Source: Candidatus Caldarchaeum sp.
GTDB lineage: Archaea; Thermoproteota; Nitrososphaeria_A; Caldarchaeales; Caldarchaeaceae
Length of the DNA stretch: 32,000 bases
NCBI GenBank assembly: GCA_038885755.1
Contig: JAVZZH010000001.1
Span: forward strand, 231,432-263,431
Reading direction: 5' to 3'
How positions within the stretch are numbered: position 1 is the stretch's first letter; each line of letters starts with the position of its first letter. A program made the position numbers and the translations under genes. Of this stretch, positions 4,021 to 26,494 are shown piece after piece. The notes under the pieces were generated by a model, which saw only the letters and a list, made by a program, of their open reading frames with translations, was not told the DNA's origin and did not search any database.

Positions 4021-4377
4021 TCACAGCCTCTGGGGAAGGTCCTTAAGGCTGAGGGCTGCGAAGATGGATGAAGCGCTCAGCACTCCAAGCAGGAGCACGA
4101 GGTTGAAGGCGTACTGTGGATTATCTATGATTGCTAGGGCTGAGATGAAGACGGCTATCGAGAGGACGGCGTAAGCCACGTAGATGATGGCGTAGGGGAA
4201 GTATTCTACGGGGAAGGAGGTTTCAGCCCACTCGAAAGGAACCTGACCGCTTTCGAACGAAAGCCTCTTCCTCCTCGTCCCCCTGCTCGACGAGAGGAGC
4301 TTGTTGGCCAGAAGAAGTATCAGGGGAAGCGCCGCCGTCAAAACCGTGTAGTAGATCAGCGCCTCGGTCTGCGACAT
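4021..4377 (-). CDS. nuoA: NADH:quinone oxidoreductase subunit A (NuoA/ND3)
   Basis: 118 aa with three hydrophobic helices and a FESGQVPF...FPVEYFPYAIIYV motif resembling the NuoA YECG...F loop. Lies 3 nt upstream of nuoH. Confidence 0.85.
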   Translation of the reverse strand: MSQTEALIYYTVLTAALPLILLLANKLLSSSRGTRRKRLSFESGQVPFEWAETSFPVEYFPYAIIYVAYAVLSIAVFISALAIIDNPQYAFNLVLLLGVLSASSIFAALSLKDLPQRL

Positions 4378-4413
4378 CGGTGATAAGCCGAGCGGCGATT
4401 ATTTAAATCTGCG

Positions 4414-5868
4414 TCAACGAGGCTCGAGAGCTGTTTTGAGGCTGAGATACTGCTTTATGTCCGAGACGGGAACCCTCTCCTGCTTCATCGTGTCTCTGTC
4501 TCGGATTGTTGCGGTGTGGTCTTGAATGGTCTGGTAGTCGACTGTGATGCAGTAGGGCGTACCTATCTCGTCCTGTCTTCTGTACCTCCTTCCGATGCTG
4601 CCGCTTTCGTCGTAGAAGACGTCGAAGTCCAGCTTTAAGCTCTCGTAAACGGATCTGGCGTAGCTGACCAGCGGAGGCTTGTCCATCAGAGGGAACACGG
4701 CTGCGGTGTATGGCGCTAGGTAGGGATGGAGCTTGAGGACTGTTCTCTCGTTTTCGACTTTGTAAGCTAGCTCCAGCAGGGCTAGAATGCTCCGGTCAAC
4801 ACCCATCGAAAGCTCGAAGACATGAGGGACTATGCTCACGCCGTCCTCGACAACACTCAGGTCAGCACCGCTCTCACGCGCGTGGCCGTTCAAGTCGTAA
4901 TCTGTCCTGTTGTTGCAGGCCACGAGCTCCACCCATCCCGAGCCGAGCAGCACCTCAAAATCCCACGCCTCAGCCGCGTAGAACGCCTTCTCGTCATCCC
5001 CCAGCCTCCTAAACCTAATCCTGTCGAGGGGGAAGCCAAGAGCTAGGTAAAAATCCTGAAGAAGCGACAGGTAGTAGGCTGTGAGCCAGCTAGACACCAG
5101 CCCGGACTCGACGGCTTCGCTGCACTTGACGAGGCTCACCCTGTCGTCAACCATGAGGTTGAGCAGCTTGTCCTTAACAGCTTCAGCCTTCGAGCCGTCA
5201 GCTATATTCGGGTTGTAGAAAACCTCTACCTCGGCCTGCGTGAACTCCCTCAACCTGAGCAGCGACTGTCTGGGGGAGATCTCGTTCCTGAAGCTCCTGC
5301 CTACCTGCGCAACCGCTATCGGTAGTTTCCTCCGCGATATCTTATAAATCCTCTGAAAATCCACGAAGATGTTTTGACATGTCTCGGGCCTCAGGTATGC
5401 ATCCTCGCCCGCCGCTCCCACCGAGACTTTGAACATCATGTTGAAGAGCGAGACCTTACCCAGACTTCCGCCGCAGAGCGGACATTTGAAACCTGTACGC
5501 TCTATGATCGAATCTATCTGCTCCGGCGGAGTTCTCTCGGGGACTTTCAAGCCAGTCTTCTCCTCGATAAGCCTGTCTATCCTGTGCACCGCGCCGCAGG
5601 ACGAGCATCTGCTTATAGGGTCTACGAAGGTGGTGAGATGCCCTGAGGCGGCGAAAACCCCTCTGGGAAGGATCTGCGACCCGTCTATCAGTATCATCTC
5701 GTCCCTTCGAACCAAAAGCCTGTGCCATGCCGAAATATACTTCTGCTTCATCAACACCCCGAGATGCCCGTACTCCCAGAACCCTGCGGGAGAGTTAGGA
5801 TATATCTCAGCCGAGGGGAAGAAAAAACCTCTCTCGAGCCCGAGCTTTATCACCTCTTCAAGACCCAT
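4414..5868 (-). CDS. glyS: Glycine--tRNA ligase (archaeal/eukaryotic-type class II GlyRS)
   Basis: N-terminus RGFFFPSAEIYPNSPAGFWEYGHLG, plus the motif-3-like and anticodon-domain region GSIGRRYRRQDEIGTPYCITVD. The 484-aa length is typical. Confidence 0.93.
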   Translation of the reverse strand: MGLEEVIKLGLERGFFFPSAEIYPNSPAGFWEYGHLGVLMKQKYISAWHRLLVRRDEMILIDGSQILPRGVFAASGHLTTFVDPISRCSSCGAVHRIDRLIEEKTGLKVPERTPPEQIDSIIERTGFKCPLCGGSLGKVSLFNMMFKVSVGAAGEDAYLRPETCQNIFVDFQRIYKISRRKLPIAVAQVGRSFRNEISPRQSLLRLREFTQAEVEVFYNPNIADGSKAEAVKDKLLNLMVDDRVSLVKCSEAVESGLVSSWLTAYYLSLLQDFYLALGFPLDRIRFRRLGDDEKAFYAAEAWDFEVLLGSGWVELVACNNRTDYDLNGHARESGADLSVVEDGVSIVPHVFELSMGVDRSILALLELAYKVENERTVLKLHPYLAPYTAAVFPLMDKPPLVSYARSVYESLKLDFDVFYDESGSIGRRYRRQDEIGTPYCITVDYQTIQDHTATIRDRDTMKQERVPVSDIKQYLSLKTALEPR

Positions 5869-5883: not shown

Positions 5884-6573
5884 TTAAAGAACTGTCTTGC
5901 CGCAGTTGGGGCACGTACCGTTAATGTTTACGTATGCCTCTGCGCACCCCTGATGAAACACGACCCCGCAGCTGCTGCATCTAACAGCGTTCTCGGCCGT
6001 GACGGTTGTGTAGCATATGGGGCAGACCGTTTCATCCTCAACGTTTTCAACCCTCTCCAAGCTGGTCTCCTCCGGAACCGACGAACTCGTCAACGGCTCC
6101 TGCTCCCCGTAGTACTGGGGATACGGAACCTCGACCCTCTGCGGCCTCGTCAGGACAACCACGAGCCCCAAAGCCATCAGAACCACGGCCGTGAACAGAG
6201 CTGCGAAGAAGCCTAGGTCAGGTTCTCCGGAGACGTTGAGCCTCGGCAGCGCAACCATGCTGAGGTACACGGGTGAAAGCAAGGCGAGGACGCCTCCTAG
6301 AATCGAGAAAGCCGCTAGGATGATTCTCACCGTCCCAGCCCGCGACGAGAAGGATGTGGCGAGAAGCGAGAGGCCTGCGAGCATTCCGCCGGCTACTGAA
6401 AACATCAGGGTCTCGGTCAACAGATAACCGCTCAGAAGGCTTCTGGAAACAGTGTCAGCCCTTACCACGTACCAAGGCAGCAGAAGAGTAAGGATGTGCA
6501 TGCTCCCAACTAGCGCAAGCAAGGAGCCGAGCTTGAAAAACCTTACCAAAAGCCGTTGCTCGGAGACTATCAT
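5884..6573 (-). CDS. Membrane-anchored protein with a C-terminal C4HC3 RING-type zinc finger (candidate membrane E3 ligase)
   Basis: About four N-terminal hydrophobic helices are followed by an acidic linker and then CPIC-x11-CSSC-x4-H-x2-C-x10-CPNC. This spacing is identical to the small finger protein at 7846..8076. Confidence 0.8.
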   Translation of the reverse strand: MIVSEQRLLVRFFKLGSLLALVGSMHILTLLLPWYVVRADTVSRSLLSGYLLTETLMFSVAGGMLAGLSLLATSFSSRAGTVRIILAAFSILGGVLALLSPVYLSMVALPRLNVSGEPDLGFFAALFTAVVLMALGLVVVLTRPQRVEVPYPQYYGEQEPLTSSSVPEETSLERVENVEDETVCPICYTTVTAENAVRCSSCGVVFHQGCAEAYVNINGTCPNCGKTVL

Positions 6574-6702
6574 TCCGGCTTAAAGCCTGTGAAAAGCACC
6601 TTATAAAAACATGTCTCTGGAACTCCCTCGAGTCGTTTAGCGAGATTGTCGGTTTTTCCCGTAGCAGTAGGGTTTATAACCCCGTAAAACGCTGAATGTG
6701 CC

Positions 6703-7536
6703 ATGGGCCTGCTTTCCAAGCGCGGCGACAACATGGTCGACCTCCGTAAAGAGGTTGCCGCTTTAAGGGTGCAGTTAATCGACAGGATGGAGGAGAGAAT
6801 AGGCCTTGTCGAGGAGGCTTTGTCGAAGCTCAAGGAGGATGTTAGGCTCGTCCTAGACCAGTTTTCGGCTCCACACAAGATAATGGTAAACATGCAGGAG
6901 ATCCTTGCACGTGGAGCTGTCCTCAACGAGACTCTCGACGAGTTCAAGGCGGCTACAGAGGAGCTGAAGGCTATGCGCAACAGCGTGCAGGAGATGACTG
7001 AAGCCTTGATGAGGGAGAGGGAGCAGCTTGCGAAGGAGATGCAGAGGTATAAGGCTGAGAGAGACGGTTTGAACGCCTTGAGGGAGGAGGTTTCCAGATG
7101 GAGGGCCGAGCTTGAGCAGAAAGAGCGTCAGATCGCAGAGGCTCAGGAGACGCTTAAAACTCTTCTGAGGAAGAAGGAGAGCTTGGAGGAGGAGGTCCGG
7201 ATGCTGAGCGATAGATACTTGACTTCTTTCGATGATGCTCAGAAGAAGCTCGAGGCATACGGGAGGGAGATGGACAAGATGTTCAAACTGAGGGAGATCA
7301 GGATGGAGAGGTTGATTCGTAGGGAGAAAGAGCTCGAGGACAGACTGGCTGCGTTGGAAAACAGCAAGTCAGAGGCTGAGAAGCTTATTGCTTTCGCTAA
7401 TAAGCTGAAGGAGGAGGTGAGCAAGCTGGAAGCCTACAAGGAATCGCTGTCAAACGAGATATCTCAGATGGAGAAGAGGAGGGCTGAGCTGAACGAGCTG
7501 ATAACTGAGATGAGGCGGGCATTCCTCACTTCATAA
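6703..7536 (+). CDS. Long coiled-coil protein (277 aa), function unknown
   Basis: E/K/R/L-rich heptad-like sequence runs throughout. A TATA-like TTTATAA at 6673-6679 lies about 27 nt upstream of the ATG. Confidence 0.75.
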   Translation: MGLLSKRGDNMVDLRKEVAALRVQLIDRMEERIGLVEEALSKLKEDVRLVLDQFSAPHKIMVNMQEILARGAVLNETLDEFKAATEELKAMRNSVQEMTEALMREREQLAKEMQRYKAERDGLNALREEVSRWRAELEQKERQIAEAQETLKTLLRKKESLEEEVRMLSDRYLTSFDDAQKKLEAYGREMDKMFKLREIRMERLIRREKELEDRLAALENSKSEAEKLIAFANKLKEEVSKLEAYKESLSNEISQMEKRRAELNELITEMRRAFLTS

Positions 7537-7842
7537 CTTCAGAGCCTTCTTTATCTGAGCAACTGTCGCAGACAACTCTCCCAACGCGTTTAGAACATCT
7601 CTCATGTCGTCTGCAAGAATAGTGAGCTGGTCCTCGATATCCCTCAACTTCTTCTCGAAGCCTTCGGGAGGTTTTTCCTCTCTCTGCAGCGAGTTGATTT
7701 TGGCGTTGACTTTTTCGATTTCCTCGAAAACCTCGACAAGTAGCTCAGCTAGCTGCTTGACTCCCTCAAACCGTGCAACAGGCCCCTTCGGCGTCTCCAG
7801 AAAGTCCAGTTCTACCACCTTCTCGTTTTTCTCCTCCGACAT
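7531..7842 (-). CDS. Small acidic helical protein (103 aa), last gene of the ubiquitin-like operon
   Basis: The ATG lies 3 nt after the RING-finger gene stop and is preceded by GGAGGAGTGA (Shine-Dalgarno-like). I recognise no family. Confidence 0.7.
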   Translation of the reverse strand: MSEEKNEKVVELDFLETPKGPVARFEGVKQLAELLVEVFEEIEKVNAKINSLQREEKPPEGFEKKLRDIEDQLTILADDMRDVLNALGELSATVAQIKKALKL

Positions 7843-7845
7843 CGC

Positions 7846-8076
7846 TCACTCCTCCACGATCGTTCTCCGGCAGAGGGGGCAGGTCTTCCTGATAAGCAGC
7901 CAGTCGTCGAAGCACGTCATATGACCTACAGCCCCGCAGTGAGGACAGCTGTAGATTTTGTCGTTCGACAGCTCCAGCCCACAGATTACACACAGGCCTG
8001 TCCTCTCCTTCTTCTCAGACACGGCTTCGAACGGGTTCCAGAAGCCCGCGTTAACTTCCTTGACCACTATCTTCAA
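7846..8076 (-). CDS. Small RING-type zinc finger protein (candidate E3 ligase)
   Basis: 76 aa with C29-x2-C32-x11-C44-x2-C47-x4-H52-x2-C55-x10-C66-x2-C69 (cross-brace C4HC3 pattern). The TTG start at 8076 (alternative GTG at 8067) overlaps the E1 3' end. Confidence 0.85.
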   Translation of the reverse strand: MKIVVKEVNAGFWNPFEAVSEKKERTGLCVICGLELSNDKIYSCPHCGAVGHMTCFDDWLLIRKTCPLCRRTIVEE

Positions 8077-9241
8077 CGAGCCTCACCCTTACAGAGAGTG
8101 GAGCAGCCCTCCTGCTCGTGTGGACGAAGACCACGTCCCCGTCTTTCAGCCCCGAGCCTATCAAGGTTTCGGATTCGTTTATCAGCCGGGTTCCGTGCTG
8201 GAGCTGGACGTCCGGGAACATAAACTTGCTGGATATTCTCTCCAAGAAATCGACTACTCTTTCGTGAGGATGTGCGGTCATCTCGACTGGTTTATCGCTG
8301 TCAGACCCGCATACATGGCAGAGCTCGTTCCTAGCAAGCCTGACCCTAGAGACACGGCCGTTCAGCCCGTCGTAAACGAGCAGCCCGCTCAAAGACCTTC
8401 CCAAAGAGCCGTCGTGCAGAACTCTAACGACTTCGAAGACGCCTAGGCCGGCTACTGTTGCGGATATGCTTAGAACGGCTGGAATCTTCGGGTTGAGCAG
8501 ACTACGTAAACGGTTGACGAGGTTTTTGAGCTCTGGACTCAGCCCGTCGACAACCTTCTGAGGGGCGTATTTTATGTCGTAGAGCGTCTTGATGTTGTGG
8601 TTGAAAAGCTCAGCCGCCTCATCCAACCCCACTGCTATGCCTCTGTCCCTGAGCTCGGAGACGAGGTCTTCAGGCTTCCTCCGCCTCAGAGAGCATTCAG
8701 CTGCCTGAACCTCCAAAGGGATCAGGGCCTCCGCATGACACTCGATACAAGCCGTCTGTCGCGGGATTATCGTCTGAACGTTCCCGTAGTATCCGTCGGT
8801 CGCTAGGTCGACTAAAGGCTTGCCCAGCTCCACGGCCATAGAGTTAATCCATCGCCTAGTCGGCCAGTTGTCTACACAGCTGACCAGCACGTCGAACTCA
8901 GAGAAGACATCCTCACCTATGTTCCTTACATCCTTGTGCATCCCAACAACGTGCACTAGAGGGTTCATGCGTCTAACCCGCTGCTCCGCAAGCTCCGCCT
9001 TCGGCTTTCCTATATCCTCGTCGACGTAAAGCATCTGCCTGCTTAGGTTGGAGAGCTCAACGACGTCGTTGTCGACTAGAAGCAGTTCGCCCACGCCCAT
9101 CAACGCTAGGTTCTTAGCCGCTTCACATCCAAGAGCGCCGACTCCAGCGACCAGCACACGGGCTGACGCCAGCCTGCGCTGGTCCCAGCCCTCAAGCATT
9201 AGTTGTCTGTCGTACCGTGCTAGTGCTGAGCCTGCATCCAA
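8051..9241 (-). CDS. E1-like ubiquitin-activating enzyme (ThiF/MoeB/UBA family) with an extra C-terminal domain
   Basis: Contains RYDRQLML...VLVAGVGALGCEAAKNLALMGVGELLLVDNDVVELSNLSRQ (adenylation Rossmann fold). Paired CIEC and CHVC zinc motifs are present. A C-terminal tail of about 90 aa includes GLKDGDVVFV, which looks beta-grasp-like. Start is TTG. Confidence 0.92.
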   Translation of the reverse strand: MDAGSALARYDRQLMLEGWDQRRLASARVLVAGVGALGCEAAKNLALMGVGELLLVDNDVVELSNLSRQMLYVDEDIGKPKAELAEQRVRRMNPLVHVVGMHKDVRNIGEDVFSEFDVLVSCVDNWPTRRWINSMAVELGKPLVDLATDGYYGNVQTIIPRQTACIECHAEALIPLEVQAAECSLRRRKPEDLVSELRDRGIAVGLDEAAELFNHNIKTLYDIKYAPQKVVDGLSPELKNLVNRLRSLLNPKIPAVLSISATVAGLGVFEVVRVLHDGSLGRSLSGLLVYDGLNGRVSRVRLARNELCHVCGSDSDKPVEMTAHPHERVVDFLERISSKFMFPDVQLQHGTRLINESETLIGSGLKDGDVVFVHTSRRAAPLSVRVRLVEDSGQGS

Positions 9242-9242
9242 C

Positions 9243-9749
9243 CTAGAGACCCTTTCTCCTGCCCAGCTTAAAAGCTTCCTCCGGAGAGGCGTAGACCTCT
9301 AAAAACTGTCTCACCCGGGCCATGAAGAGGTCGGGCCTGTTTTTGTACTCGAAGGCAGCGATGGGGTTTAGCGGGTCTTCGGGGTTGGGGTTGTTCAGCA
9401 GGTTTCTGAGAGCCTCTATGACGGCGACTATTCTGAGGGAGGGCGACCAGTGGTCCTTGAAGACAGACTCGCAGACGCGAGCCGGAACTGTGTCTGAGAA
9501 GTTTGGATGCCATATTCTTGTGTGCCAAACTATGTCGGGCGGGAAGTAGGGGTACGAGCGCGGTATAAGGATCTCGACCCTGAAGTATCCGCCCTCGTAA
9601 ATGTTTGTCCCGATTATCACGCCCTCGTAGTGTGTAAGGTCGTTCTCGACCGGGCTGAACGTCGGTTCATTTTCCTGGATGAGCGAATACTCGAGCGCCA
9701 GCCTCCTGTGCCATGCGCTCTCAGGCAGCTCAGCGTAAACGTTCTCCAT
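9243..9749 (-). CDS. E2 ubiquitin-conjugating enzyme (UBC fold)
   Basis: Contains IWHPNF (the HPN motif) followed by PARVCESVFKDHWSPSLRI, which matches the catalytic-Cys context of the canonical ICLDIL..WSP. The 168-aa length is typical. Confidence 0.92.
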   Translation of the reverse strand: MENVYAELPESAWHRRLALEYSLIQENEPTFSPVENDLTHYEGVIIGTNIYEGGYFRVEILIPRSYPYFPPDIVWHTRIWHPNFSDTVPARVCESVFKDHWSPSLRIVAVIEALRNLLNNPNPEDPLNPIAAFEYKNRPDLFMARVRQFLEVYASPEEAFKLGRRKGL

Positions 9750-9984
9750 TTCCCCCCACCGTACGGGTGATGAGGACGAACTTATCCCCGTCGGCGACGC
9801 CTAGGCTCTGAAGGGTCTCCGTGTCCTTCAACGCCCTTCCCTTGTATGTAAGCCTAGTTGTGTCTGGGGGGAGCTTCCTCATGGCGCATACCTTGGTCCT
9901 AACCGCTCCAATCGTTGCGTTCGGCGAAACCTCCAACTCTAAAGGGCTTCCTCCACCCACGGCAGGCACTATCTTTATCTTCAT
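9730..9984 (-). CDS. Ubiquitin-like beta-grasp modifier precursor (di-glycine followed by a 6-aa tail)
   Basis: MKIKIV...LEVSPNATIGAVRTKV...LPPDTTRLTYKGRALKDTETL...FVLITRTVGG-NGERLR aligns by eye along the full length of eukaryotic ubiquitin. GG is at aa 77-78 of 84. Confidence 0.9.
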   Translation of the reverse strand: MKIKIVPAVGGGSPLELEVSPNATIGAVRTKVCAMRKLPPDTTRLTYKGRALKDTETLQSLGVADGDKFVLITRTVGGNGERLR

Positions 9985-10008
9985 ACTGCAGGCTTGTTAA
10001 GCTAAAGT

Positions 10009-10018
10009 GTATATAAGG
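10009..10018 (-). promoter_or_regulatory. Candidate TATA box for the ubiquitin-like operon
   Basis: The minus strand reads CCTTATATAC. Its centre is about 29 nt upstream of the Ub-like ATG (9984), consistent with a leaderless or near-leaderless archaeal promoter. Confidence 0.45.
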
Positions 10019-10042
10019 TTTAACGGCGTGTAAAACGTCGAA

Positions 10043-10067
10043 AATGTCGATGAAATATTTCGACATT
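10043..10067. promoter_or_regulatory. Inverted repeat AATGTCGA-n9-TCGACATT in the divergent promoter (candidate operator)
   Basis: Perfect 8-bp arms at 10043-10050 and 10060-10067 flank an AT-rich 9-nt spacer. An additional GTCGA half-site lies at 10037-10041. The element sits between the two TATA-like boxes. Confidence 0.4.
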
Positions 10068-10102
10068 CCCGAAAGAGTCTAGTCGTCGGGAGAAACACGA
10101 CA

Positions 10103-10111
10103 TTTTTAATA
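10103..10111 (+). promoter_or_regulatory. Candidate TATA box for the JAMM protease gene
   Basis: TTTTTAATA is centred about 29 nt upstream of the in-frame ATG at 10136. Confidence 0.45.
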
Positions 10112-10126
10112 CCCGGCTTTGTCTCC

Positions 10127-10744
10127 TTGGAAGCGATGCGTGTAAGGATATACCCGCTAGCCCTAGCTAAGATTGTCAAGCATTCAACCACCTTCCTGAA
10201 CAAGGAGGTTGCCGGGCTGCTGGTGGGTAAGTCGGCGGGGAAGGTCCTCGAAGTGTGGGACGCCGTGACCGGGGAGCAGTACGGAACCGCCGCCTACGTC
10301 CATCTCGACGAGGCTGTGATGTCTCGTGTTGCGGAGCAGCTTTCTGAGGATGGTAAAGGCCTTTACATAGTGGGATGGTATCATTCACACCCCGGGTTGA
10401 CGGTTTTCCTATCTCCCACCGACATAGACACTCAGAAACGTTATCAGAGCATTTATCCCAAGGCCGTGGCCTTGGTGATAGACCCGTCCAAGTATGTCGA
10501 GACACGTAGGATCTCGTCGATCGACTTCAAAGTCTTCCAGATATCGAAGGAGGGGAAAGTGGTGTCCCTGCCCGTGTCTATAGGAGTTCAGAGGTCTAAG
10601 CTGCTGGAGAGCACTTTCCATGCTTTGAGCACTTTTGATGTGAGGCATCTACTCCAGCAGTCGGAGGGTATGACTGAGAGCGGTCCGCAAGCCGGTGAAG
10701 ACGGAAGCTTGCTGGGAAAAGCTAAAAAGCTGTTCGGAAGATGA
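10127..10744 (+). CDS. JAB1/MPN+ (JAMM) metalloprotease, Rpn11-like deubiquitinase / precursor-processing enzyme
   Basis: The JAMM motif is intact: EVAGLLVG (Glu) and GWYHSHPGLTVFLSPTDIDT (HxHx7Sx2D). The track start is TTG at 10127. The ATG at 10136 fits the TATA spacing better. Confidence 0.92.
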   Translation: MEAMRVRIYPLALAKIVKHSTTFLNKEVAGLLVGKSAGKVLEVWDAVTGEQYGTAAYVHLDEAVMSRVAEQLSEDGKGLYIVGWYHSHPGLTVFLSPTDIDTQKRYQSIYPKAVALVIDPSKYVETRRISSIDFKVFQISKEGKVVSLPVSIGVQRSKLLESTFHALSTFDVRHLLQQSEGMTESGPQAGEDGSLLGKAKKLFGR

Positions 10745-10757
10745 GGAGGGAGACGCG

Positions 10758-11531
10758 TTGCCTAAGAAAATCGTGCTGAAGATAAAGCATGAACAGCAGC
10801 AGGAGCAGCCGGAGGTCGAGCCAGCCCAGCAACAACCTATTGAGGTGCCGGCCGTCGCCGAGCCCGAGCCTGCACCACCTCAGCAAGCTCCTCAGCCGGG
10901 AGACCTTGAGGAAGCCCTGAAGCAGTACCAGGACTTGATGAAAGAGCTTGAGCTGATCAAGAACCTCGACAAGAACTTCATAGCCTACTGCGTAAAGCTC
11001 GAAGACCTTAGGCCTAACCTTATCAGGAGCATTCTGGGGCGTTTGTCGGAGAAGCGCAACGCTTTGCTGGAGAGATCTGCCGCGGTGCTGGAGAGTATGA
11101 AGGCTGTGCGGGATTCGTTGGGGTCGGAGTTTGCTGAGGTTGAGGAGGAGCTCATTTGGAGCAGCATAGAGCTCAACACGATGCAGCTAGAGGGCTCCAA
11201 GGCTGATGCTGCAAGGGTTGGTCTGAAAGAGGAGCTTGAGGCCAAAATACCCGAGCTCCGGAAGAAGCTCACCAACCTGAGGAACAGGCTGAAGATGGTC
11301 GAGGACGTTGTCAAGCAGCTGTCCGAACTTCCACGAAACATAGTCGAACTGACTACCAGCAAGGAGGACATAGCTAAGCTGTTTGAGGATGCAAAGAAGA
11401 GGTATATTCTGACGCATGGCCAGAGGGCGGAGGCTGTGCTTAGGGCCGAGATAGACAGGGTTGCCCAGCAGGAAGCCATTCCCAGAGAATACGCCACGCT
11501 GCTTGTCTGGAAGGCCTCGCTCCAGCGTTAA
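10758..11531 (+). CDS. Hypothetical helical protein with a Q/P/E-rich N-terminus, coupled to the JAMM gene
   Basis: The track ORF begins at GTG 10695 and overlaps the JAMM gene by 50 nt. I prefer TTG 10758, which lies 7 nt after a strong GAGGAGGG Shine-Dalgarno-like site spanning the JAMM stop. I recognise no family. Confidence 0.7.
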   Translation: MPKKIVLKIKHEQQQEQPEVEPAQQQPIEVPAVAEPEPAPPQQAPQPGDLEEALKQYQDLMKELELIKNLDKNFIAYCVKLEDLRPNLIRSILGRLSEKRNALLERSAAVLESMKAVRDSLGSEFAEVEEELIWSSIELNTMQLEGSKADAARVGLKEELEAKIPELRKKLTNLRNRLKMVEDVVKQLSELPRNIVELTTSKEDIAKLFEDAKKRYILTHGQRAEAVLRAEIDRVAQQEAIPREYATLLVWKASLQR

Positions 11532-11935
11532 ACCACAGGCCTGAACTTCACCCCGTACACTATTAGAGTTGAGTCGCTGTCCCACCTAAGCCTTCTGACA
11601 ACAGCTTCAACAGGTATGCCTGGTTTCAGGTCTTGAGGATTGCAGTCAGTAAGCTGGCCTACGACTCTAGTTCCGTCATCCATCTCTACCAAACCCACGG
11701 CGAAAGGCGTGCTGTTTTCAAACCCTCCTTGGGCTTGGTACACAACAGTGAACTGCACGAGCCTGCCGGTGTTGTTCAGCCTGTCGGAGTCCAGCCTTTT
11801 TGAGGAGCATCTACGGCATGCAAGCCTCTTCAACGGATGGAAGTGGCCGCAGACGGAGCAGCGGCTTCCCTCAAGGCGGTAGATGAACGGTCTGAGCCGC
11901 CAGTAAACGGGAGGTCTGGACGCCACGATGTTCAC
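11528..11935 (-). CDS. DUF35-family zinc-ribbon/OB-fold protein (scaffold of the archaeal thiolase/HMG-CoA synthase complex)
   Basis: Contains a CSVCGHFHPLKRLACRRC zinc ribbon followed by an OB-fold-like region. Its GTG start overlaps the thiolase stop (GTGA). Confidence 0.85.
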   Translation of the reverse strand: MNIVASRPPVYWRLRPFIYRLEGSRCSVCGHFHPLKRLACRRCSSKRLDSDRLNNTGRLVQFTVVYQAQGGFENSTPFAVGLVEMDDGTRVVGQLTDCNPQDLKPGIPVEAVVRRLRWDSDSTLIVYGVKFRPVV

Positions 11936-13095
11936 CTAAGGCTCTCTAGGACTACTGCGCCTGCGCTGGACCCTAGGCCGGCGATGGACACGACCATGCC
12001 TTTCTCAGCTCTGTCCACTTGGTTCTTGGCTGCGTTTTGCGTGAGCTGCATGAAAGCCTCGACCAAGGCGTACACTCCCGAGGCCCCTGCCGGATGGCCT
12101 CTCCCTTTCAAGCCTCCGAAAGTGTTTATCGGGAGATCACCGCTTAGGCTGAACCTACCCTTCTCAGCCTCAAGGCAGGCTCTCCCCCTCTCCGCAAGCC
12201 CGAGAGATTCGAGGATGAGCGGGGTCATAATGCTGTAGGATTCGTGGAGCTCTATGAAGTCAAGGTCCCTTCCCCTTAGACCGGCCATCTCCAGTGCTCT
12301 TCTTCCAGCCGTGCTGACCGAGCTCAACTCAAGGGGGTCTTCTCTGTCGAACGGAACTAGAAAGTCTGTCGAGAAGCTTGCTCCTGTGAGGAGGCATTTG
12401 TGGCCGTCGATTTTGCTGGCGAGGTCTTCGGACACGACTATTATGGCGGCGGCTCCGTCGGCTGGCGCGGTAGTTTCGAGCCTGCGCAGAGGCTCCGCCA
12501 CGTAGGGTGAGTTCATGACTGTTTGAAGGTTTAGCTTGAACTGGTATTGTGCGTGAGGGCATGTAGAGGAGTGTTCATGGCTCAGAACGGGGAAGTATGC
12601 TACGTTTTCTGGTAGAAGCTTGTATCTCGATAGGTACTCTTTGTAGAGGAGGGCGGCTTGGGCTAGCTGGCTTACTCCGAGGAACCCGGTGCATTCCTGC
12701 CTCTCCTCCATCGTAAGAAGGCTTAGGGCCTCCTCAGCCGTTCCATCCGACATCTTCTCTACGCCGACAACCATAGCGGCTTTCGAAACCCCCATCATCA
12801 CGGCTGCAGCAGCGGAGTAGAGGGCCATCAACCCAGACACGCCGCCGGCCTCGACACGAGTCGCGGCAACGTTCCTTAGCCCCAGCTCCTCCGCTAGAAC
12901 CGACCCTAGATTAACCTGTTCTTGAAGCTTCTCGCCGTAGACGTTCGCGACGTAGACATGGTCGACTGAGGAGAGGCCTGAGCCCTCCAAGGCTTTCAAC
13001 CCCGCTTCAGCCATCATCTCGGCCAAGCTCCTGTCCCAGTGTTCATCGACTTTGAGGACTGAACCCCCGCAGACGACTGCTTTCAACCTGCTCAC
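11932..13095 (-). CDS. Acetyl-CoA acetyltransferase (archaeal thiolase)
   Basis: Shows a thiolase-superfamily pattern, including the C-terminal NTFGGLKGRGHPAGASGVY. I trimmed the track ORF (to 13320) to GTG 13095, which forms a GTGA overlap with the upstream stop and gives 387 aa. Confidence 0.9.
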   Translation of the reverse strand: MSRLKAVVCGGSVLKVDEHWDRSLAEMMAEAGLKALEGSGLSSVDHVYVANVYGEKLQEQVNLGSVLAEELGLRNVAATRVEAGGVSGLMALYSAAAAVMMGVSKAAMVVGVEKMSDGTAEEALSLLTMEERQECTGFLGVSQLAQAALLYKEYLSRYKLLPENVAYFPVLSHEHSSTCPHAQYQFKLNLQTVMNSPYVAEPLRRLETTAPADGAAAIIVVSEDLASKIDGHKCLLTGASFSTDFLVPFDREDPLELSSVSTAGRRALEMAGLRGRDLDFIELHESYSIMTPLILESLGLAERGRACLEAEKGRFSLSGDLPINTFGGLKGRGHPAGASGVYALVEAFMQLTQNAAKNQVDRAEKGMVVSIAGLGSSAGAVVLESLR

Positions 13096-14180
13096 ATCCG
13101 GATCTTGTCTCTGTACTTTAGGTATGTTGCGTAGTCTATTTCTGTCCTCCTGCTGAGCATCTGGGCGTAGGTGGGGGCCCTGTTTCGCCTCTCGACAACG
13201 CCGTCGCAGACGGTCAGGACGAATGAGTCGCTGCCAGCTCCCGAGCCGTAGGATGTGGCCAGTATTCTCTGTCCCGGTGAAGCTATGTCTAGTATCTTTG
13301 CGAGGGCCAGCATGGAGCACGCTGCATAGGTGTTTCCGACCATGTCGGCCACAAGCCCGGGCAGTATCTTCGAGCTCGGTATTGACAAGACCTTGGCAAC
13401 TGCAAGCGGGAACTTGACGTTGGGCTGGTGGAAGGCGAAGTAGTCTATGTCGTTGACTGAGAAACCGTTTTCAGCGAGAATGGTGTTGACAGCCGAGATG
13501 GTGTGGTGGAAGTATGCAGGCTCACCCGTGAACCTTGACGCATGAACGGGATATCTCTCGTAGCTTCTGCGCCAAAAATCAGGAGTGTCCGAGACAAATG
13601 AAACAGAGTACTCAAACCGAGCTATACAGTTGTTGGTGTTAGGCCCTATGACAAAGGCAGCCGCCCCGCTGGCCGCTGTGTACTCGAGGGCGTCGCCCGG
13701 CCTTCCCTGAGCTGTGTCGGCACCAATCGCAATCCCGTACTCTATCCTGCCTGCTTCGACCAGTGCTGTGATGAACTGTACAGCCTCCGTCCCCGCCTTG
13801 CATGCAAACTCCAAGTCGGCGGAGGTAGTGCTTCTTGAAACGCCGAGTATCTCTGCGACGAGCGTCCCGGTGGGCTTGACTGCGTAGGGTTTCGACTCTG
13901 TCCCGACGTGGACGGCGGCTATCCTCGACGGGTCTATTCCCGCCCTCCTCAACGCATACCTGGCTGCTTCAACAGACATCGTCACGGTGTCTTCGTCGAG
14001 TCCAGCCACGGCCTTCTCCTTGACCGGAAGGTCTGCAGGGTTCTTGCCCCAGACCCTAGCCAGCTCCTCGCCCTTCAGCCTGAACCTGGGGAGGTATATG
14101 CCGTATCCATGGATGGCTGCGTTGCTGATTCTGGGCATCTGGGTGTTGGTGCTGTAGGGTTGTATTAAAGTCTCTTGCAT
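13092..14180 (-). CDS. Hydroxymethylglutaryl-CoA synthase (archaeal type)
   Basis: Contains GYGIYLPRFRL, VGTESKPYAVKPTG and the catalytic-Cys context EFACKAGTEAV. An alternative start is the ATG at 14138. Confidence 0.9.
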   Translation of the reverse strand: MQETLIQPYSTNTQMPRISNAAIHGYGIYLPRFRLKGEELARVWGKNPADLPVKEKAVAGLDEDTVTMSVEAARYALRRAGIDPSRIAAVHVGTESKPYAVKPTGTLVAEILGVSRSTTSADLEFACKAGTEAVQFITALVEAGRIEYGIAIGADTAQGRPGDALEYTAASGAAAFVIGPNTNNCIARFEYSVSFVSDTPDFWRRSYERYPVHASRFTGEPAYFHHTISAVNTILAENGFSVNDIDYFAFHQPNVKFPLAVAKVLSIPSSKILPGLVADMVGNTYAACSMLALAKILDIASPGQRILATSYGSGAGSDSFVLTVCDGVVERRNRAPTYAQMLSRRTEIDYATYLKYRDKIRM

Positions 14181-14249
14181 ATGCGGTTTTCGACGTTTGT
14201 CTAACCGTTATAGATTAAAGCCGATAAGCTGTTTAAGGCCCCGAGAGCG

Positions 14250-14699
14250 ATGAGCCAAGACTTGGACGAAAAAGACCGTAAGATCATAGAGGAGCTGATG
14301 GAGAACGCCGAGCAGTCGATTACGGAGCTGGCCGCCAAGCTACGGATACCACGTACAACGGTCCATGAGAGGGTTAAAAGGCTGAAACAGCTGGGAGTGA
14401 TCAAGAAATACACTATTCAGGTTAACTACGCCAAGCTCGGCAAGCCTGCGACAGCTTTCATCCTTATATCTTTTGAGCAGGGAGCGATGTCCCAGAAGAA
14501 GCTGGCCCAGGAGATCGCCAAGCTGCCGGAGGTGGTTGAAGCCCATCTCATAACAGGCGAGTGGGACATCCTTGTCAAGGTTCGGACCGACTCGATGCAG
14601 TCGATCGGGTCTCTAGTAGTCGACAAGCTCAGGATGATGGAGGGGGTTGGAAAAACAATGACCTGCGTCTCCTTCTTCGCTGTAAAGGAATCCTCCTGA
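14250..14699 (+). CDS. Lrp/AsnC-family transcriptional regulator
   Basis: N-terminal HTH DEKDRKIIEELMENAEQSITELAAKLRIPRTTVHERVKRLKQLGVI followed by a C-terminal RAM-type domain. 149 aa. Confidence 0.9.
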   Translation: MSQDLDEKDRKIIEELMENAEQSITELAAKLRIPRTTVHERVKRLKQLGVIKKYTIQVNYAKLGKPATAFILISFEQGAMSQKKLAQEIAKLPEVVEAHLITGEWDILVKVRTDSMQSIGSLVVDKLRMMEGVGKTMTCVSFFAVKESS

Positions 14700-22988: not shown

Positions 22989-24653
22989 CTAGAACCGTGG
23001 AGGAGGAGGCGGAGGAGGTGGATACCTTGGCCCAGCTCTTCTCCTCGTGATGATTAGGGCGAACGCTGCGAGCAACGCTCCAAGCACGATTGCCAAGCTT
23101 ACGTAATCCTCGCCGGATGTTTCCGGAGGAGGTGGTTTCACAGTAACCGTGACAACGATGGTCTGCGTTTCCCTGCCGAAAACCGTCTGAGTCGTGTAAA
23201 CCGTTTGAGCAACCGTGCCGGTGACGGTTCTCGTGACCGTCCTAGTGACTTCAACCGTCTCTTTTTCTTCGACGGGCGGCTCTTCACCGAGGCCGATGGA
23301 TAAAACGACCGTTCCAGCGGATTGGTCGAAACTCATCACCTTGATGACGAACCCCTCATCTGTCGCGTATTCGCTGTTTTCGAAGTTTAGTTCCAAGGGA
23401 TTGGGTAAAGCTCTGAGGCTGTGTATCCAGTTTGTCCGGTAGCTAGGCTCGATTATTGGTGCGTCAACCCCTTCGCACAACCTAACCACCCTAGATTCAA
23501 GGCGCTCGCAGATAGCTGGTGTGTCGGGATTGGCTTCAATCAGTCTGATAAAATATTTTTCGTCGACTATGTTCCTGTCAACGTATTCGTTGACGCGGAA
23601 GACGAGAACACCGGGGCCGGGAAGAGCTGCGTCGTTTTTCACAGGCCTTCGGGCATGGATAAAGTAGTATTCTTTATCGTTGATGCGGATAATGAGAGCA
23701 TGCGGTTCATCCGGTCTATCAAGCGTGTGTATCAAATATTCTCCTGTCTTCTCCACCTCGACCGCCTCTATCCATCCGAGGATGTATTTTGACCAGCCGT
23801 CGATGTCGACTGGCGGGTCGAGGAACGCACCGTAATCCATGTTTGTCCACACTCCTACTTCACTGCCCGCGCTGTATCCGTCTTTGTCGTAAACGTAGTG
23901 GTCGGATATCCACATGCTGTGCGTGAATTCATGCGCCAAAACCGCTGGAAAATCATCCTCGGCTACAGTCAGTATCCCCGCCAACAAATTCCCTTTTCCA
24001 TCCCTACCCCTATGCATGAAAAGGTCTACGGCCCAGTCGAGTCCCTGTCTACGAAGCGCTTGCTCCAATTCATCGAACCCATATTGTTCAATTAGGTCGT
24101 AGAGAACCCTCGGAACAACGCAGTGACAATGGCTCCAGACGTCGTTCGCTGACCCGCTGATAGCTTCGTCTCTCCCCGCATGTATCACTATGACGTGCTT
24201 AAACTTCGATACGTCGACACGTTCTCTTTCCTTGACTGTCTTTATCACGGTCAAGTGGTATTCCAGAATTCTTTGATTGTCGTCTCCTCTCTGCGCTCCA
24301 CTACTCGGACCGCCGTAGTAGCTCATGGTTTTAGGCAACGTGATGACTTTAGGATGAATATAGTAGTCGAGCCACGTCTTACCGTATGACGATGAGCGGA
24401 CGAAGTCGTCGACGACTTTAACTATCTGCTCCGCTTGAGTCCTGCCTATCCGCATTTTGACGTCGCTAAAATCTACTAGGACGACAAGAGTCGGCTGTGC
24501 ACCGAGGAAAGCTACCGGTTTATGCCACCTTCTCTCTTGTTGTTGAGACACTCCGGCTGGAATCAAGACACCGAGCAGAAGCAATCCTAAAACGAGGAGA
24601 ACAATTTTACGCAAACCTGTATCCACACCTCCTGCATGCAAAGTCTCCAGCAT
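22989..24653 (-). CDS. Secreted, C-terminally membrane-anchored zinc metalloprotease (M6/InhA-like HEFxH...D motif) with a polyproline cytoplasmic tail
   Basis: Signal-like LRKIVLLVLGLLLLGVLIPAGVSQ; VLAHEFTHSMWISDHY (HExxH plus downstream Asp); a Thr/Val-rich stalk; a TM helix; and the tail RRRAGPRYPPPPPPPPRF. The track start at 24740 is rejected because of a 134-nt overlap. Possible starts are ATG 24653 or TTG 24614. Confidence 0.8.
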   Translation of the reverse strand: MLETLHAGGVDTGLRKIVLLVLGLLLLGVLIPAGVSQQQERRWHKPVAFLGAQPTLVVLVDFSDVKMRIGRTQAEQIVKVVDDFVRSSSYGKTWLDYYIHPKVITLPKTMSYYGGPSSGAQRGDDNQRILEYHLTVIKTVKERERVDVSKFKHVIVIHAGRDEAISGSANDVWSHCHCVVPRVLYDLIEQYGFDELEQALRRQGLDWAVDLFMHRGRDGKGNLLAGILTVAEDDFPAVLAHEFTHSMWISDHYVYDKDGYSAGSEVGVWTNMDYGAFLDPPVDIDGWSKYILGWIEAVEVEKTGEYLIHTLDRPDEPHALIIRINDKEYYFIHARRPVKNDAALPGPGVLVFRVNEYVDRNIVDEKYFIRLIEANPDTPAICERLESRVVRLCEGVDAPIIEPSYRTNWIHSLRALPNPLELNFENSEYATDEGFVIKVMSFDQSAGTVVLSIGLGEEPPVEEKETVEVTRTVTRTVTGTVAQTVYTTQTVFGRETQTIVVTVTVKPPPPETSGEDYVSLAIVLGALLAAFALIITRRRAGPRYPPPPPPPPRF

Positions 24654-25608
24654 AGACGGGGAATCTACAGGCGGGGCAGTATCCCACGATTGACGGCGGC
24701 GGGGGTGGGGGCTGCTGATAGGTCGATGAGGGCGGCGCATACACTGGATACGGATAGGTTGGCGGTAGAGGTCTTTTCCTAGCCCGCGTAAAGAATAGGG
24801 TTGCTCCGATTATTCCCGCCGATACACCGACGGCTACGGGTAGCGGAAAGACCGCTGAACTAGGTGGTTGAACTTCTGCTTGAACGGTCGCGGTCGTGGA
24901 GACCGTTGTAGTGGCTACGATGGTTTCTACGCGTGTTTCTACTCTTGTCAAAGTTTCTATCGCCGTTTCGGTTACCGTCTCCGTCCTTTCCTGCACCACC
25001 GTGGTTCTAGTTGTGGCAACGGCTGTTGTCCTCCGCGTGGTCACCGGCGTCGTGTAAGTCGACGTCGACGCCACGGCCCCGCTCTGCTCGATGTTCACTA
25101 GCTGCAGGCCTTTTTTCTGGCCGAATATCACGCCGAGAAGCAGGCCTTTCAACCGGCTGAAAGGCTCTGGCCCGTCTTCGATAAACATCCAGAAAGTCGA
25201 CTGGTCTGTCGAAGCAACGATCGTGAGCTTAATGCCTTGCATCTCAAGTCCTTTCTGAGCGACTACGACATCTACTCCACCGAACTTGAAACGCGTTCCG
25301 GGGCTTAGGTCGAGTGGAATCCATAAATCAATCCTCACTCCCGGCTGAATTTCTCCGTTGGGCTTGACGTTTAAGCTGGTCGGCCTCATGACATCCGATT
25401 GGATGGCGACGGTGATGGCCTGAGGTGAGACGGATTCGATTATGTATCTGTGGAAAAGGTTCTCAAGCTGCTGTTTCTGCAAGTCGACGACTTGATATAC
25501 AAAAACGAATCCACGCTGAATGTATGGAGGCGGCTGCTGCGAGTATACGGGAGCAACCAAGGCCAAAGCAATTATGGAAACGGTTAACAAAGAAAGTAGT
25601 GAGCGCAT
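24607..25608 (-). CDS. Surface protein with signal peptide, Thr-rich stalk, TM anchor, Pro-rich (PPxY-like) tail and a terminal CxxC-x10-CxxC zinc ribbon
   Basis: I set the start at ATG 25608 (MRSLLSLLTVSIIALALVAPVYSQ), 7 nt after the upstream stop. The C-terminus is ...RKRPLPPTYPYPVYAPPSSTYQQPPPPPPSIVGYCPACRFPVYAGDFACRRCGYRFA. Confidence 0.75.
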   Translation of the reverse strand: MRSLLSLLTVSIIALALVAPVYSQQPPPYIQRGFVFVYQVVDLQKQQLENLFHRYIIESVSPQAITVAIQSDVMRPTSLNVKPNGEIQPGVRIDLWIPLDLSPGTRFKFGGVDVVVAQKGLEMQGIKLTIVASTDQSTFWMFIEDGPEPFSRLKGLLLGVIFGQKKGLQLVNIEQSGAVASTSTYTTPVTTRRTTAVATTRTTVVQERTETVTETAIETLTRVETRVETIVATTTVSTTATVQAEVQPPSSAVFPLPVAVGVSAGIIGATLFFTRARKRPLPPTYPYPVYAPPSSTYQQPPPPPPSIVGYCPACRFPVYAGDFACRRCGYRFA

Positions 25609-25615
25609 CTTCGCA

Positions 25616-26494
25616 TCACGCTGTTTTCTCGACGGGTGCTTTGCCAGCCGCGTAGCCCCAGGCAACTTCGTCCTGCAGTGCCCATAAAACCCTCTGCACC
25701 AAAGCTGCGAGGAACAGAACGGTCAACAACCCTGTTCCAACTAGCCGGATAAACAAAGGCTGGCCCCCGAGCAGAGCAATCACAAACGCTGCGATGGCCT
25801 TGAATAGAGCCACCGGAATAAAGCCGGTAAGCAGGTCGCCGAAGCCTACCGATGTGTACTTAGCTTTGACGTATCCAATCCACCATCCCGTGAACGCCGG
25901 AAACATCACGTATATGAATTCCTCCAAAGCCAGCGTCAGCAAAAATTCAGGCCGAAGCGGAACGTATCCCCCGAGCAGGTAGAAGTTGTTGTAGAGAACG
26001 TATCCGAGGCCCAGAGAAACACCGTATACGGCTCCGTCGAGGTGGTCGTTGAATTCCCTGCCGGTGAACCTGTTGGCGTCCAGAAGATAGAGGATGAGGA
26101 AGAAGATGAATTCGAGGAGGATGAGTTTGGCGACGTAGGAGGTTAATCCCGCTGGGAACGGGAGGAGGTTGAAAAGGGCTGCGACCACGACGCCGACGCC
26201 TATCACAGCTACAACAAGTGTCTTCGGCTCCGGCTCATACCTGTCTGTCCGAACCAGCCAAGCCAAAAGCAGCGCTATCGGCAGCACTGAAAGCCCGACG
26301 TAAACCATTATTCCACGGATTTCAGCGACGAGCAGCCCTGCAGCCAAAACGGCGATTACGGCGAATACACCGACAACCCAGAGCCTACTGCCGGAATAAA
26401 CAATCATACCTCTCTGATAAATCTCTGAAGTAGGAGACTTGATAGGAGTCCGCTTGAACCATGTGGCGAACGCTTCCCGCCACAGTGAGGACAT
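25616..26494 (-). CDS. Multi-pass membrane protein, distantly PrsW-like (tentative)
   Basis: Polytopic hydrophobic profile. DGAVYGVSLGLGYVLYNN resembles the PrsW DGxxYGxxxGLGFAxxEN block, but the expected acidic and His residues are not obvious. Confidence 0.7.
   Translation of the reverse strand: MSSLWREAFATWFKRTPIKSPTSEIYQRGMIVYSGSRLWVVGVFAVIAVLAAGLLVAEIRGIMVYVGLSVLPIALLLAWLVRTDRYEPEPKTLVVAVIGVGVVVAALFNLLPFPAGLTSYVAKLILLEFIFFLILYLLDANRFTGREFNDHLDGAVYGVSLGLGYVLYNNFYLLGGYVPLRPEFLLTLALEEFIYVMFPAFTGWWIGYVKAKYTSVGFGDLLTGFIPVALFKAIAAFVIALLGGQPLFIRLVGTGLLTVLFLAALVQRVLWALQDEVAWGYAAGKAPVEKTA

Follow-up and report, generated by a model that had tools for sequence, protein, structure and literature searches.

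The ubiquitin locus of the Aigarchaeota was first described by Nunoura et al., 2011 (PMC3082918), and the cascade it encodes was reconstituted by Hennell James et al., 2017 (PMC5654768). In the latter study the Candidatus Caldiarchaeum subterraneum orthologue (CSUB_C1477) of the small RING finger protein (srfp) was demonstrated to be an E3, and biochemistry exists for srfp alone. The 2011 account mentions only srfp and labels the operon neighbours 'hypothetical'; the 2017 account mentions no membrane or second RING. We analyzed a 32,000-nucleotide stretch of Candidatus Caldarchaeum DNA (referred to as the window), which is the ubiquitin locus of this group. Besides srfp, it encodes a protein of 229 aa that combines a predicted four-helix membrane domain with a C-terminal RING-type finger, referred to here as the membrane RING. 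We consider this protein, on balance, to be probably an E3 ligase that is anchored in the membrane and works with the local E2. Such a membrane-bound ubiquitin ligase arrangement is otherwise characterised in eukaryotes alone.

The gene and the predicted parts of its product are as follows.

5884..6573, minus strand: membrane RING gene, an ATG-to-TAA open reading frame (ORF) of 229 aa plus stop
6148..6573, minus strand: putative four-helix membrane domain, residues 1-142 (AlphaFold2, Foldseek, charge counts)
6034..6147, minus strand: acidic, predicted disordered linker, residues 143-180 (model confidence, identity by segment)
5887..6033, minus strand: RING finger, residues 181-229 (zf-RING_2 profile)

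We take the gene to be real because orthologues with as little as 31-36% identity keep the whole plan of four membrane helices, acidic disordered linker and C-terminal finger. With 100% identity, the product corresponds to the database entry P0001, which the NCBI pipeline had already named automatically as 'RING finger protein [Candidatus Caldarchaeum sp.]', and its orthologues in the database span 31-99% identity. The initial annotation had described about four hydrophobic helices followed by an acidic linker; hydropathy and two AlphaFold2 models agree on the helices, and the quoted linker, EQEPLTSSSVPEETSLERVENVEDE, is present in the ORF.

Members of the family come from a narrow range of hosts. 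A word-indexed search returned 23 relatives, all from Caldarchaeum or 'Aigarchaeota'. An exhaustive hidden Markov model (HMM) search of 1.84 billion representative proteins with a profile of the membrane domain alone returned 15 clusters, 13 of them with an intact finger; of the other two, P0035 has a frameshifted C-terminus and P0037 is a weak spurious match. The membrane domain without a finger was not seen in this search. By name, the sources are Caldarchaeum, Pelearchaeum, Geocrenenecus, Calditenuaceae and further Caldarchaeales. The membrane RING thus represents a small family confined to Caldarchaeales.

The accessible literature holds no description of the protein, although it may be mentioned in Burroughs, Iyer and Aravind, 2011. 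A count of zf-RING_2 genes in an aigarchaeote reached nine in a paper whose main text lacks the word 'transmembrane' (Grau-Bove et al., 2015; PMC4327156), Hua et al., 2018 list only 'E3-like', and neither a 2024 review of ubiquitin evolution nor a 2026 review of organellar Cdc48 pathways cites an archaeal membrane E3. In the accessible sources we found neither a definition of the family nor its claudin-like domain, predicted cytoplasmic topology and retained E2-contact residues, and likewise neither the conserved grouping of two RING proteins with two coiled-coil proteins nor the exceptions to its linkage.

The finger and its relation to srfp

The finger has the sequence pattern CPIC-x11-CSSC-x4-H-x2-C-x10-CPNC, with putative ligands C184-x2-C187-x11-C199-x2-C202-x4-H207-x2-C210-x10-C221-x2-C224. 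A six-frame scan of the window for RING-type ligand patterns found no sites beyond those of the membrane RING and srfp. The initial annotation had left room for a plain zinc ribbon. A RING is favoured by the Pfam profile zf-RING_2 (PF13639), which matches residues 183-224 with 36.0 bits (srfp, 38.8 bits; gathering cut-off, 27.3), and by the likeness to solved RING-H2 E3s. The closest solved sequences are the active RING-H2 ligases Arkadia, RLIM, RNF38, RNF126, EL5, AMFR and synoviolin/Hrd1, and the alignments with Arkadia, RLIM, RNF38, AMFR and Hrd1 are free of gaps; among the PDB matches, AMFR was hit with E = 4e-4 and synoviolin with E = 2e-3. The RING-H2 (C3H2C3) order itself, C-C-C-H-H-C-C-C with C3-x-H4-x2-H5, is absent: in the ungapped alignment the His-4 position of Arkadia falls on V204. 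The fourth ligand is likely to be supplied instead by Cys199, located three residues ahead of C202, and the finger would then be C4HC3. A matching anomaly, an extra cysteine named 'C3B', has been reported for srfp (Hennell James et al., 2017; PMC5654768). Since V204 and Cys199 of the membrane RING have this counterpart in srfp, the derived ligand arrangement is, as judged from the sequences, common to both archaeal fingers.

Other finger classes fitted less well. The PHD profile scored 18.5 bits against a cut-off of 24 and matched residues 184-216 only. Prok-RING_1 (PF14446) scored 14.8 bits against 29.1, with 26.4 bits for srfp, and the orthologues P0029 and P0032 carry precomputed PF14446 matches. 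Pfam RINGv was not among the matches of the protein at E <= 1. In the RING-CH pattern, C-x2-C-x(10-45)-C-x-C-x7-H-x2-C-x(11-25)-C-x2-C, the finger lies N-terminal to the helices. A finger of this MARCH/Doa10 type is ruled out by the spacing and by the C-terminal position. Scans of the membrane domain, the whole protein and srfp with Pfam, NCBIfam and PADLOC gave nothing beyond RING profiles.

The initial annotation had also asked for an E2-binding surface. In the reconstituted cascade the srfp substitution I30Q abolishes activity, and W58A and R69A impair it (PMC5654768). We compared the corresponding positions in 41 distinct membrane-RING fingers and 20 distinct srfp fingers. The position two residues after the first ligand (C1+2; I186 here) is Ile in 41/41 membrane-RING fingers, the position after the seventh ligand (C7+1; P222 here) is Pro in 41/41, and the position four residues after the sixth ligand (C6+4; Tyr214 here) is Trp or Tyr in 39/41. 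The contact surface of catalytic RINGs comprises a hydrophobic residue flanked by C1 and C2, an aromatic one in the central helix and a Pro following C7. All three are present, so the residues expected to contact E2 are kept.

These residues bear on the idea that the finger might be a ubiquitin-independent, zinc-stabilised protein-binding module for which cassette proximity is secondary. The protein would then tie a coiled-coil structure, or some other partner, to the membrane, or would respond through the tetraspan to something outside the cell. Prokaryotic RINGs are regarded as functionally diverse and not all ubiquitin-related (view of Burroughs et al. quoted in PMC4029887), and the C4HC3 composition with its x2 and x4 spacings would also fit PHD-like fingers, at the bit score given above. 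We nevertheless think this role quite improbable: conservation falls on residues that mutagenesis ties to E2 binding in the paralogue srfp, and every one of the nearest solved relatives by sequence is an active RING-H2 E3.

The basic 'linchpin' residue directly after the last ligand (C8+1) is missing from the membrane RING of the window, which has Gly225 there and Lys226 one residue later (C8+2). Across the family, Lys or Arg occupies C8+1 in 15/41 fingers and C8+2 in 21/41. The Caldarchaeum members have Gly, Asn or Gln at C8+1 and farther orthologues Lys or Arg, whereas srfp has a basic residue (R/K) at this position in 19/20 fingers. This difference is what one would expect if the membrane RING were a non-catalytic or weakly catalytic tether of srfp that brings ubiquitin-charged E2 (E2~Ub) to the membrane, either as a RING-RING heterodimer with srfp, in the manner of BARD1, BMI1 and MdmX, or through the coiled-coil proteins. 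The invariant Ile and Pro and the aromatic residue in 39/41 would be unexpected for a purely structural RING, however, the basic residue reappears in the farther orthologues, and we identified no dimerisation element. We regard a tether function as unlikely.

The srfp finger reads CVIC-x11-CPHC-x4-H-x2-C-x10-CPLC, and its ORF lies 1273 bp from that of the membrane RING. As the initial annotation had noted, the products of 5884-6573 and 7846-8076 are spaced identically: both match C-x2-C-x11-C-x2-C-x4-H-x2-C-x10-C-x2-C. The two fingers align without gaps, with 32% identity over 47 residues and a pairwise E = 1e-9. The x11 spacing is found in 39/41 membrane-family fingers; the 20 distinct srfp fingers split into 10 with x11 and 10 with x12. 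Because half of the srfp fingers have x12, identical spacing is not diagnostic of paralogy. We built a neighbour-joining tree of 26 archaeal fingers plus Arkadia and RLIM, the resolution of which is limited by its about 45 columns. A membrane-type clade was separate from a srfp-type clade, and the distant contig L028 contributed one finger to each. Mean identity between the two clades was 33%, no higher than that to the eukaryotic RING-H2 fingers of Arkadia and RLIM (35%). The tree thus indicates that the two fingers are ancient paralogues whose split is old, so the proposed paralogy holds as an ancient duplication and fails as a local one. A recent tandem duplication of srfp is ruled out by the separate clades and by the presence of one finger of each in L028.

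The membrane RING thus shares with srfp the archaeal RING subtype with its x11/12 layout and an extra Cys in place of His-4, the Ile, Trp/Tyr and Pro at the E2-contact positions, and the genomes in which they occur; in the window the two lie 1.3 kb apart. They differ in that srfp is soluble, 76 aa long, lies inside the operon and has the canonical Arg-Arg after the last Cys, whereas the membrane RING has a 142-residue four-helix domain plus linker, a predicted promoter of its own and Gly-Lys after the last Cys.

The membrane domain and its predicted topology

We modelled the protein (mean predicted local distance difference test score, pLDDT, 81.9) and its 36%-identical orthologue P0023 (pLDDT 86.6) with AlphaFold2, in both cases from 18-19 aligned sequences. 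Both models placed the helices of the membrane domain alike, at residues 2-31, 53-73, 79-112 (a long helix) and 120-141, and the pLDDT of residues 1-142 was about 80-95. A beta-hairpin (33-48) and a short strand (115-118) form a small external sheet. The finger was modelled as a compact beta-beta-alpha unit with an N-terminal strand at 172-174.

When either model was compared with the PDB by Foldseek, the top 50 matches were all claudin (-3, -4, -9, -15 and -19), TARP-gamma or Cav-gamma chains, the last being the Cav1.1 gamma subunit. E-values ranged from 3e-4 to 4e-2, and TM-scores were 0.42-0.58 when normalised to standalone target chains and lower for fusion-construct targets. The predicted models show what defines the claudin/PMP22 structure, a four-helix bundle with both termini inside (N-in/C-in) and an extracellular beta-sheet. 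Like claudins, PMP22, TARP-gamma and Cav-gamma proteins, the membrane RING would have a long third helix and an external sheet composed of loop 1 and a strand from loop 2. It differs from that superfamily in its identity of 11-19% in structural alignments, in having three sheet strands in the model instead of five, and in lacking the W-GLW-C-C signature and its disulphide pair; loop 1 contains no cysteine pair. Residues 1-150 gave no PMP22_Claudin match even at E <= 10 and matched no other Pfam family. We therefore speak of a resemblance in predicted fold and do not claim homology.

The orientation of the domain was deduced from the charges in 19 aligned sequences. In every one of them the loop between transmembrane helices (TM) 2 and 3 is free of acidic residues and has a charge of +2 to +4. 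Charges range from +1 to +4 in the stretch behind TM4, with +2 or more in 18/19, and from +1 to +3 at the N-terminus; most of the sequences have net acidic loops 1 and 3. This positive-inside pattern, combined with the N-in/C-in arrangement of claudin folds, predicts a finger on the cytoplasmic side; an extracellular finger, which would have spoken against ubiquitylation, is thus not what the charge distribution suggests.

The family has 24 invariant residues in the membrane domain, including R11, H26, W34, Y35, D40, G62, G63, G93, G94, S100, P101, Y103, G121, F122, F123 and T142. Mean pairwise identity by segment is highest in TM1 (70%), followed by the RING (64%), and lowest in the linker (33%). 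A mere passive membrane anchor is ruled out, as the membrane domain is conserved as well as the finger. In view of this high conservation, the membrane domain probably either engages partners or substrates sideways, much as TARP and Cav-gamma subunits do with their channels, or mediates self-assembly.

Residues 143-180 of the linker contain 9 D/E and 3 K/R, the linker length varies across the alignment, and the pLDDT drops below 50 at residues 149-167. The whole protein contains only two lysines (K14 and K226) and 11 arginines. A conserved 'lysine desert' looks unlikely, since farther orthologues hold more lysines.

The locus and its gene neighbourhood

The membrane RING gene is located between a glycyl-tRNA synthetase (GlyRS) gene and a block of ubiquitin-related and coiled-coil genes.

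4414..5868, minus strand: GlyRS (Pfam tRNA-synt_2b and HGTP_anticodon)
6703..7536, plus strand: CC277, a 277-aa coiled-coil protein, divergent from the membrane RING gene and a member of the conserved module
7531..7842, minus strand: CC103, a coiled-coil protein of 103 aa, encoded at the end of the ubiquitin operon
7846..8076, minus strand: srfp, the small RING finger protein of the operon (zf-RING_2, 38.8 bits)
8051..9241, minus strand: E1 (Pfam ThiF)
9243..9749, minus strand: E2 (Pfam UQ_con)
9730..9984, minus strand: ubiquitin (Pfam ubiquitin)
10127..10744, plus strand: Rpn11/JAMM deubiquitylase (Pfam JAB)
10695..11531, plus strand: CC278, a third conserved coiled-coil protein, whose orthologues flank the cassette in state-A loci (see below)
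6601..6609, minus strand: TTTTTATAA, which resembles a TATA box, some 32 nt upstream of the ATG of the membrane RING
6673-6679, plus strand: TTTATAA, 27 nt before the CC277 ATG

The element TTTTTATAA lies at the usual position of an archaeal TATA box, which suggests a separate promoter for the membrane RING gene and a leader that is very short. The GlyRS start codon follows the membrane RING stop codon by 15 nt, and because of this short distance the two genes are probably co-transcribed. Within the block, CC277 and CC103 converge with a 6-bp overlap of their 3' ends, E1 and srfp overlap by 26 nt, and the 3' end of ubiquitin overlaps the E2 start by 20 nt. The ubiquitin of the window (9730-9984) is a pro-form with a six-residue extension, NGERLR, past Gly-Gly; a nine-residue extension has been reported for C. 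subterraneum. CC103 has a conserved N-terminal [DE]TPxGxxV motif in an alignment across lineages including L028. CC277 gave generic coiled-coil matches of the SMC/Rad50 kind, far below cut-offs. No accessible paper mentions CC277, CC103 or CC278. E1 and JAMM are hit by generic PADLOC models (E1-E2/JAB), and PADLOC, Pfam and NCBIfam scans gave no sign of a known defence system.

We annotated 34 fetched loci by tblastn and iterated HMM searches seeded with the proteins of the window; 23 loci had enough upstream sequence to be informative. Immediately upstream of the membrane RING, 21 of these 23 have srfp, CC103 and CC277, with protein identities as low as about 31%, and 18 of the 23 also have E1. 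Four arrangements were seen.

State A, the window and 14 loci, and also L031, which is cut at E1: CC278, JAMM, ubiquitin, E2, E1, srfp, CC103 and CC277 upstream
State A', L014 and L015: E1, srfp, CC103 and CC277 upstream; ubiquitin, E2 and JAMM not adjacent
State B, L024, L025 and L026: srfp, CC103 and CC277 only; the genes upstream differ in each
State C, L021/L022 and L030: no cassette genes upstream

The association with the cassette is strong, holds where the flanking genes differ, and is closest for srfp, CC103 and CC277; it is not obligate. The co-occurrence with the ubiquitin cassette that the initial annotation had called for was thus found as strong co-location, with exceptions in L021/L022, L030 and L032.

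The joint occurrence of srfp, CC103, CC277 and the membrane RING in 21/23 loci, and the persistence of this block in L024-L026 where E1, E2, ubiquitin and JAMM are not adjacent, are also what a tether of srfp would lead one to expect. The same three loci provide a point against it, as it is srfp and not the membrane RING that loses the contact residues there: srfp (L024 8470-8673, L025 8460-8672 and L026 8456-8656) has Leu at the E2-contact Trp and Val or Ala at the Ile, whereas in the membrane RING the Ile remains in all three loci and the Trp in two. The srfp of these loci may have changed its partner or role.

L024-L026 also bear on the view that the adjacency is inherited gene order without functional meaning and that the membrane RING is a RING E3, or some other protein, with unrelated targets. 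The confinement of the family to Caldarchaeales fits this view, as does the synteny of the flanking housekeeping genes GlyRS, nuoA/H and HMG-CoA synthase (HMGCS)-thiolase, and the cassette block was apparently gained, lost or moved without the membrane RING in L021, L030 and L032. In L024-L026, however, the block of srfp, CC103, CC277 and membrane RING is kept while both flanks change to an MFS transporter, ribosomal protein L15e, ThiS/PALP and an inverted GlyRS, and the membrane-RING theme recurs with a different membrane domain in L028 (see below). We thus consider mere inheritance of gene order very unlikely.

A divergent archaeal ubiquitin cassette on the Logan metagenome contig L028 (735-8243) was reached through its 48%-identical E2. 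Its order is a JAB-TM-PKD fusion, ubiquitin, E2, E1, a 267-aa polytopic membrane RING and a second E2, followed by homologues of CC277, CC103 and srfp and then a second JAMM. The finger of the L028 membrane RING belongs to the membrane-RING clade (hhalign E = 1.7e-14, finger only), and its membrane part is unrelated. A search of 5.8 billion proteins returned no relatives of this protein besides itself. As judged from these sequences, L028 is an indication from an independent lineage that a membrane RING is a theme of ubiquitin operons. The location of a same-clade membrane RING between E1 and a second E2 argues against a ubiquitin-independent module, and the recurrence of all four families in so distant a cassette would also suit a tether of srfp.

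Several observations weigh against a cassette-bound E3 role of the membrane RING. L021/L022 and L030 have a membrane RING without a cassette gene within 5-10 kb. L032 has the reverse, a full cassette including srfp, CC103 and CC277 with malic enzyme next and no membrane RING within 6 kb. GlyRS is adjacent in every locus with downstream sequence (inverted in L012, L013, L015, L024 and L030), so its linkage is steadier than that of the cassette; this constancy and the persistence of the membrane RING in L021/L022 and L030 would also suit a ubiquitin-independent module. As all family members come from one order, some of the synteny may simply reflect a gene order retained by descent. The transcription signals suggest that the membrane RING heads its own unit with GlyRS, outside the transcript of ubiquitin, E2, E1, srfp and CC103. 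The Gly at C8+1 with Lys one residue later, together with the impaired activity of srfp-R69A, implies that the finger may activate E2~Ub weakly or in a partner-dependent manner. Lastly, the fold of the membrane domain is predicted by AlphaFold2 from 18-19 sequences, with Foldseek E-values of only 3e-4 to 8e-3.

The exceptional loci give some insight into how the block moves. The genomes concerned include GCA_033581515.1 and GCA_025058225.1 (Calditenuaceae, membrane RING alone), GCA_033581295.1 and GCA_053490655.1 (module present, E1 and E2 not close by) and GCA_038874475.1 (cassette present, membrane RING not close by). The order in L021/L022 (Calditenuaceae) is HMGCS, AsnC regulator, membrane RING and GlyRS. 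In L021 (6732-10834) the membrane RING stands beside the AsnC regulator and a trio of HMGCS, thiolase and OB genes, and in the window (5884-14699) the AsnC regulator and the same trio are found beyond the ubiquitin block, on its far side. The eight genes from CC277 to CC278 thus act as a single unit of insertion or deletion, together with an inversion. In L030 a CC278 orthologue adjoins the membrane RING region. L033, of the same lineage as L032, was likewise reached from E2 homologues, and its contig ends just past CC277.

A few further features of these loci were recorded. L014 (Candidatus Geocrenenecus huangii) encodes at 4067-5197, minus strand, a protein with a MIT-like N-terminus followed by an AAA ATPase region, Vps4/CdvC-like by eye; its gene lies about 1.6 kb upstream of E1, with a roughly 410-aa cysteine-rich ORF between. 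LAGLIDADG-type homing-endonuclease-like ORFs are inserted between cassette genes in L031 (1319-1912, minus strand) and L034 (5623-6315, minus strand), which come from one sample and probably represent the same genome. The longest ORF of the window's thiolase (11932-13320, minus strand) begins at a GTG and shares about 230 bp with the HMG-CoA synthase gene upstream of it; since orthologues align only from about residue 79 onward, translation probably starts farther downstream. No Pfam match at E <= 1e-5 was obtained for three consecutive ORFs (583, 352 and 292 aa) at 22989-26494, minus strand.

A candidate membrane-anchored E3 ligase

The initial annotation had likened the membrane RING to the eukaryotic membrane E3s of the MARCH, Hrd1 and Doa10 types. 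Of these, Hrd1 is the closer in architecture, and MARCH and Doa10 compare poorly by finger type. Hrd1/synoviolin, gp78/AMFR, plant ATL and RNF proteins likewise lead from a membrane domain through a flexible region to a cytosolic RING at or near the C-terminus, and their fingers are similar in sequence. Unlike Hrd1, gp78 and ATL, the membrane RING has His-4 replaced, lacks CUE, G2BR or other accessory domains and belongs to a prokaryote without endomembranes. A Hrd1/gp78-type membrane domain was not found: no Hrd1 or gp78 chain was in the Foldseek top 50, and there was no Pfam match. MARCH and Doa10 share with it the membrane-bound RING-type finger and the formal C4HC3 count and are analogues in role only, as their RING-CH finger is N-terminal with C-x-C and x7 before the His, whereas that of the membrane RING is C-terminal with C-x2-C and x4. 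Among prokaryotic proteins, family 1 of the prokaryotic RING fingers (PF14446; Burroughs et al., 2011) also joins a RING to membrane helices, with some members in ubiquitin-like neighbourhoods; an example is a 61-aa Bacillus protein (PMC4029887). We know of no characterised E3 that combines a claudin-like tetraspan with a RING.

We infer topology, zinc binding, E2 binding, E3 activity and substrate identity for the membrane RING along the following lines. The N-terminal 142 residues would form a compact four-helix bundle in the cytoplasmic membrane with both ends in the cytoplasm, from which a flexible acidic tether of about 40 residues would let the two-zinc finger sweep the inner membrane face. 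The finger would bind the ubiquitin-charged E2 of the cassette through Ile186, Tyr214 and Pro222, and this recruitment would lead to the transfer of ubiquitin to lysines on proteins near the inner membrane face. The membrane domain, and TM1 above all, might select partners or substrates by lateral helix-helix contact, or might drive self-assembly. CC277, CC103 and srfp could be partners, adaptors or substrates in this pathway, and the JAMM protease would reverse the modification. The cascade's only substrate so far is Sulfolobus Rad50, which is modified on coiled-coil lysines (PMC5654768); speculatively, the SMC/Rad50-like coiled coil of CC277 might hint at a substrate role.

A further-reaching possibility, which we put forward tentatively and rate as rather doubtful, is that Caldarchaeales possess a dedicated membrane ubiquitylation module composed of the tetraspan-RING, the small soluble RING and the two coiled-coil proteins, in which the claudin-like domain picks membrane proteins for extraction and degradation, or for sorting. 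If true, such a module would be a prokaryotic equivalent of endoplasmic-reticulum-associated degradation (ERAD)- or MARCH-type control of membrane proteins, and in principle perhaps its precursor, at work before there were endomembranes.

The order-wide conservation of the membrane RING, its linkage to srfp and the coiled-coil proteins and its kept E2-contact residues make it worth taking seriously as a candidate E3 ligase. The Caldiarchaeum cascade of E1, E2 and srfp is the reference model for the origin of eukaryotic ubiquitylation. A further RING, anchored in the membrane, would demonstrate that archaea already had diversified E3s and spatially targeted ubiquitylation, and the genes linked to it provide concrete candidates for physiological partners and substrates of the archaeal ubiquitin system.

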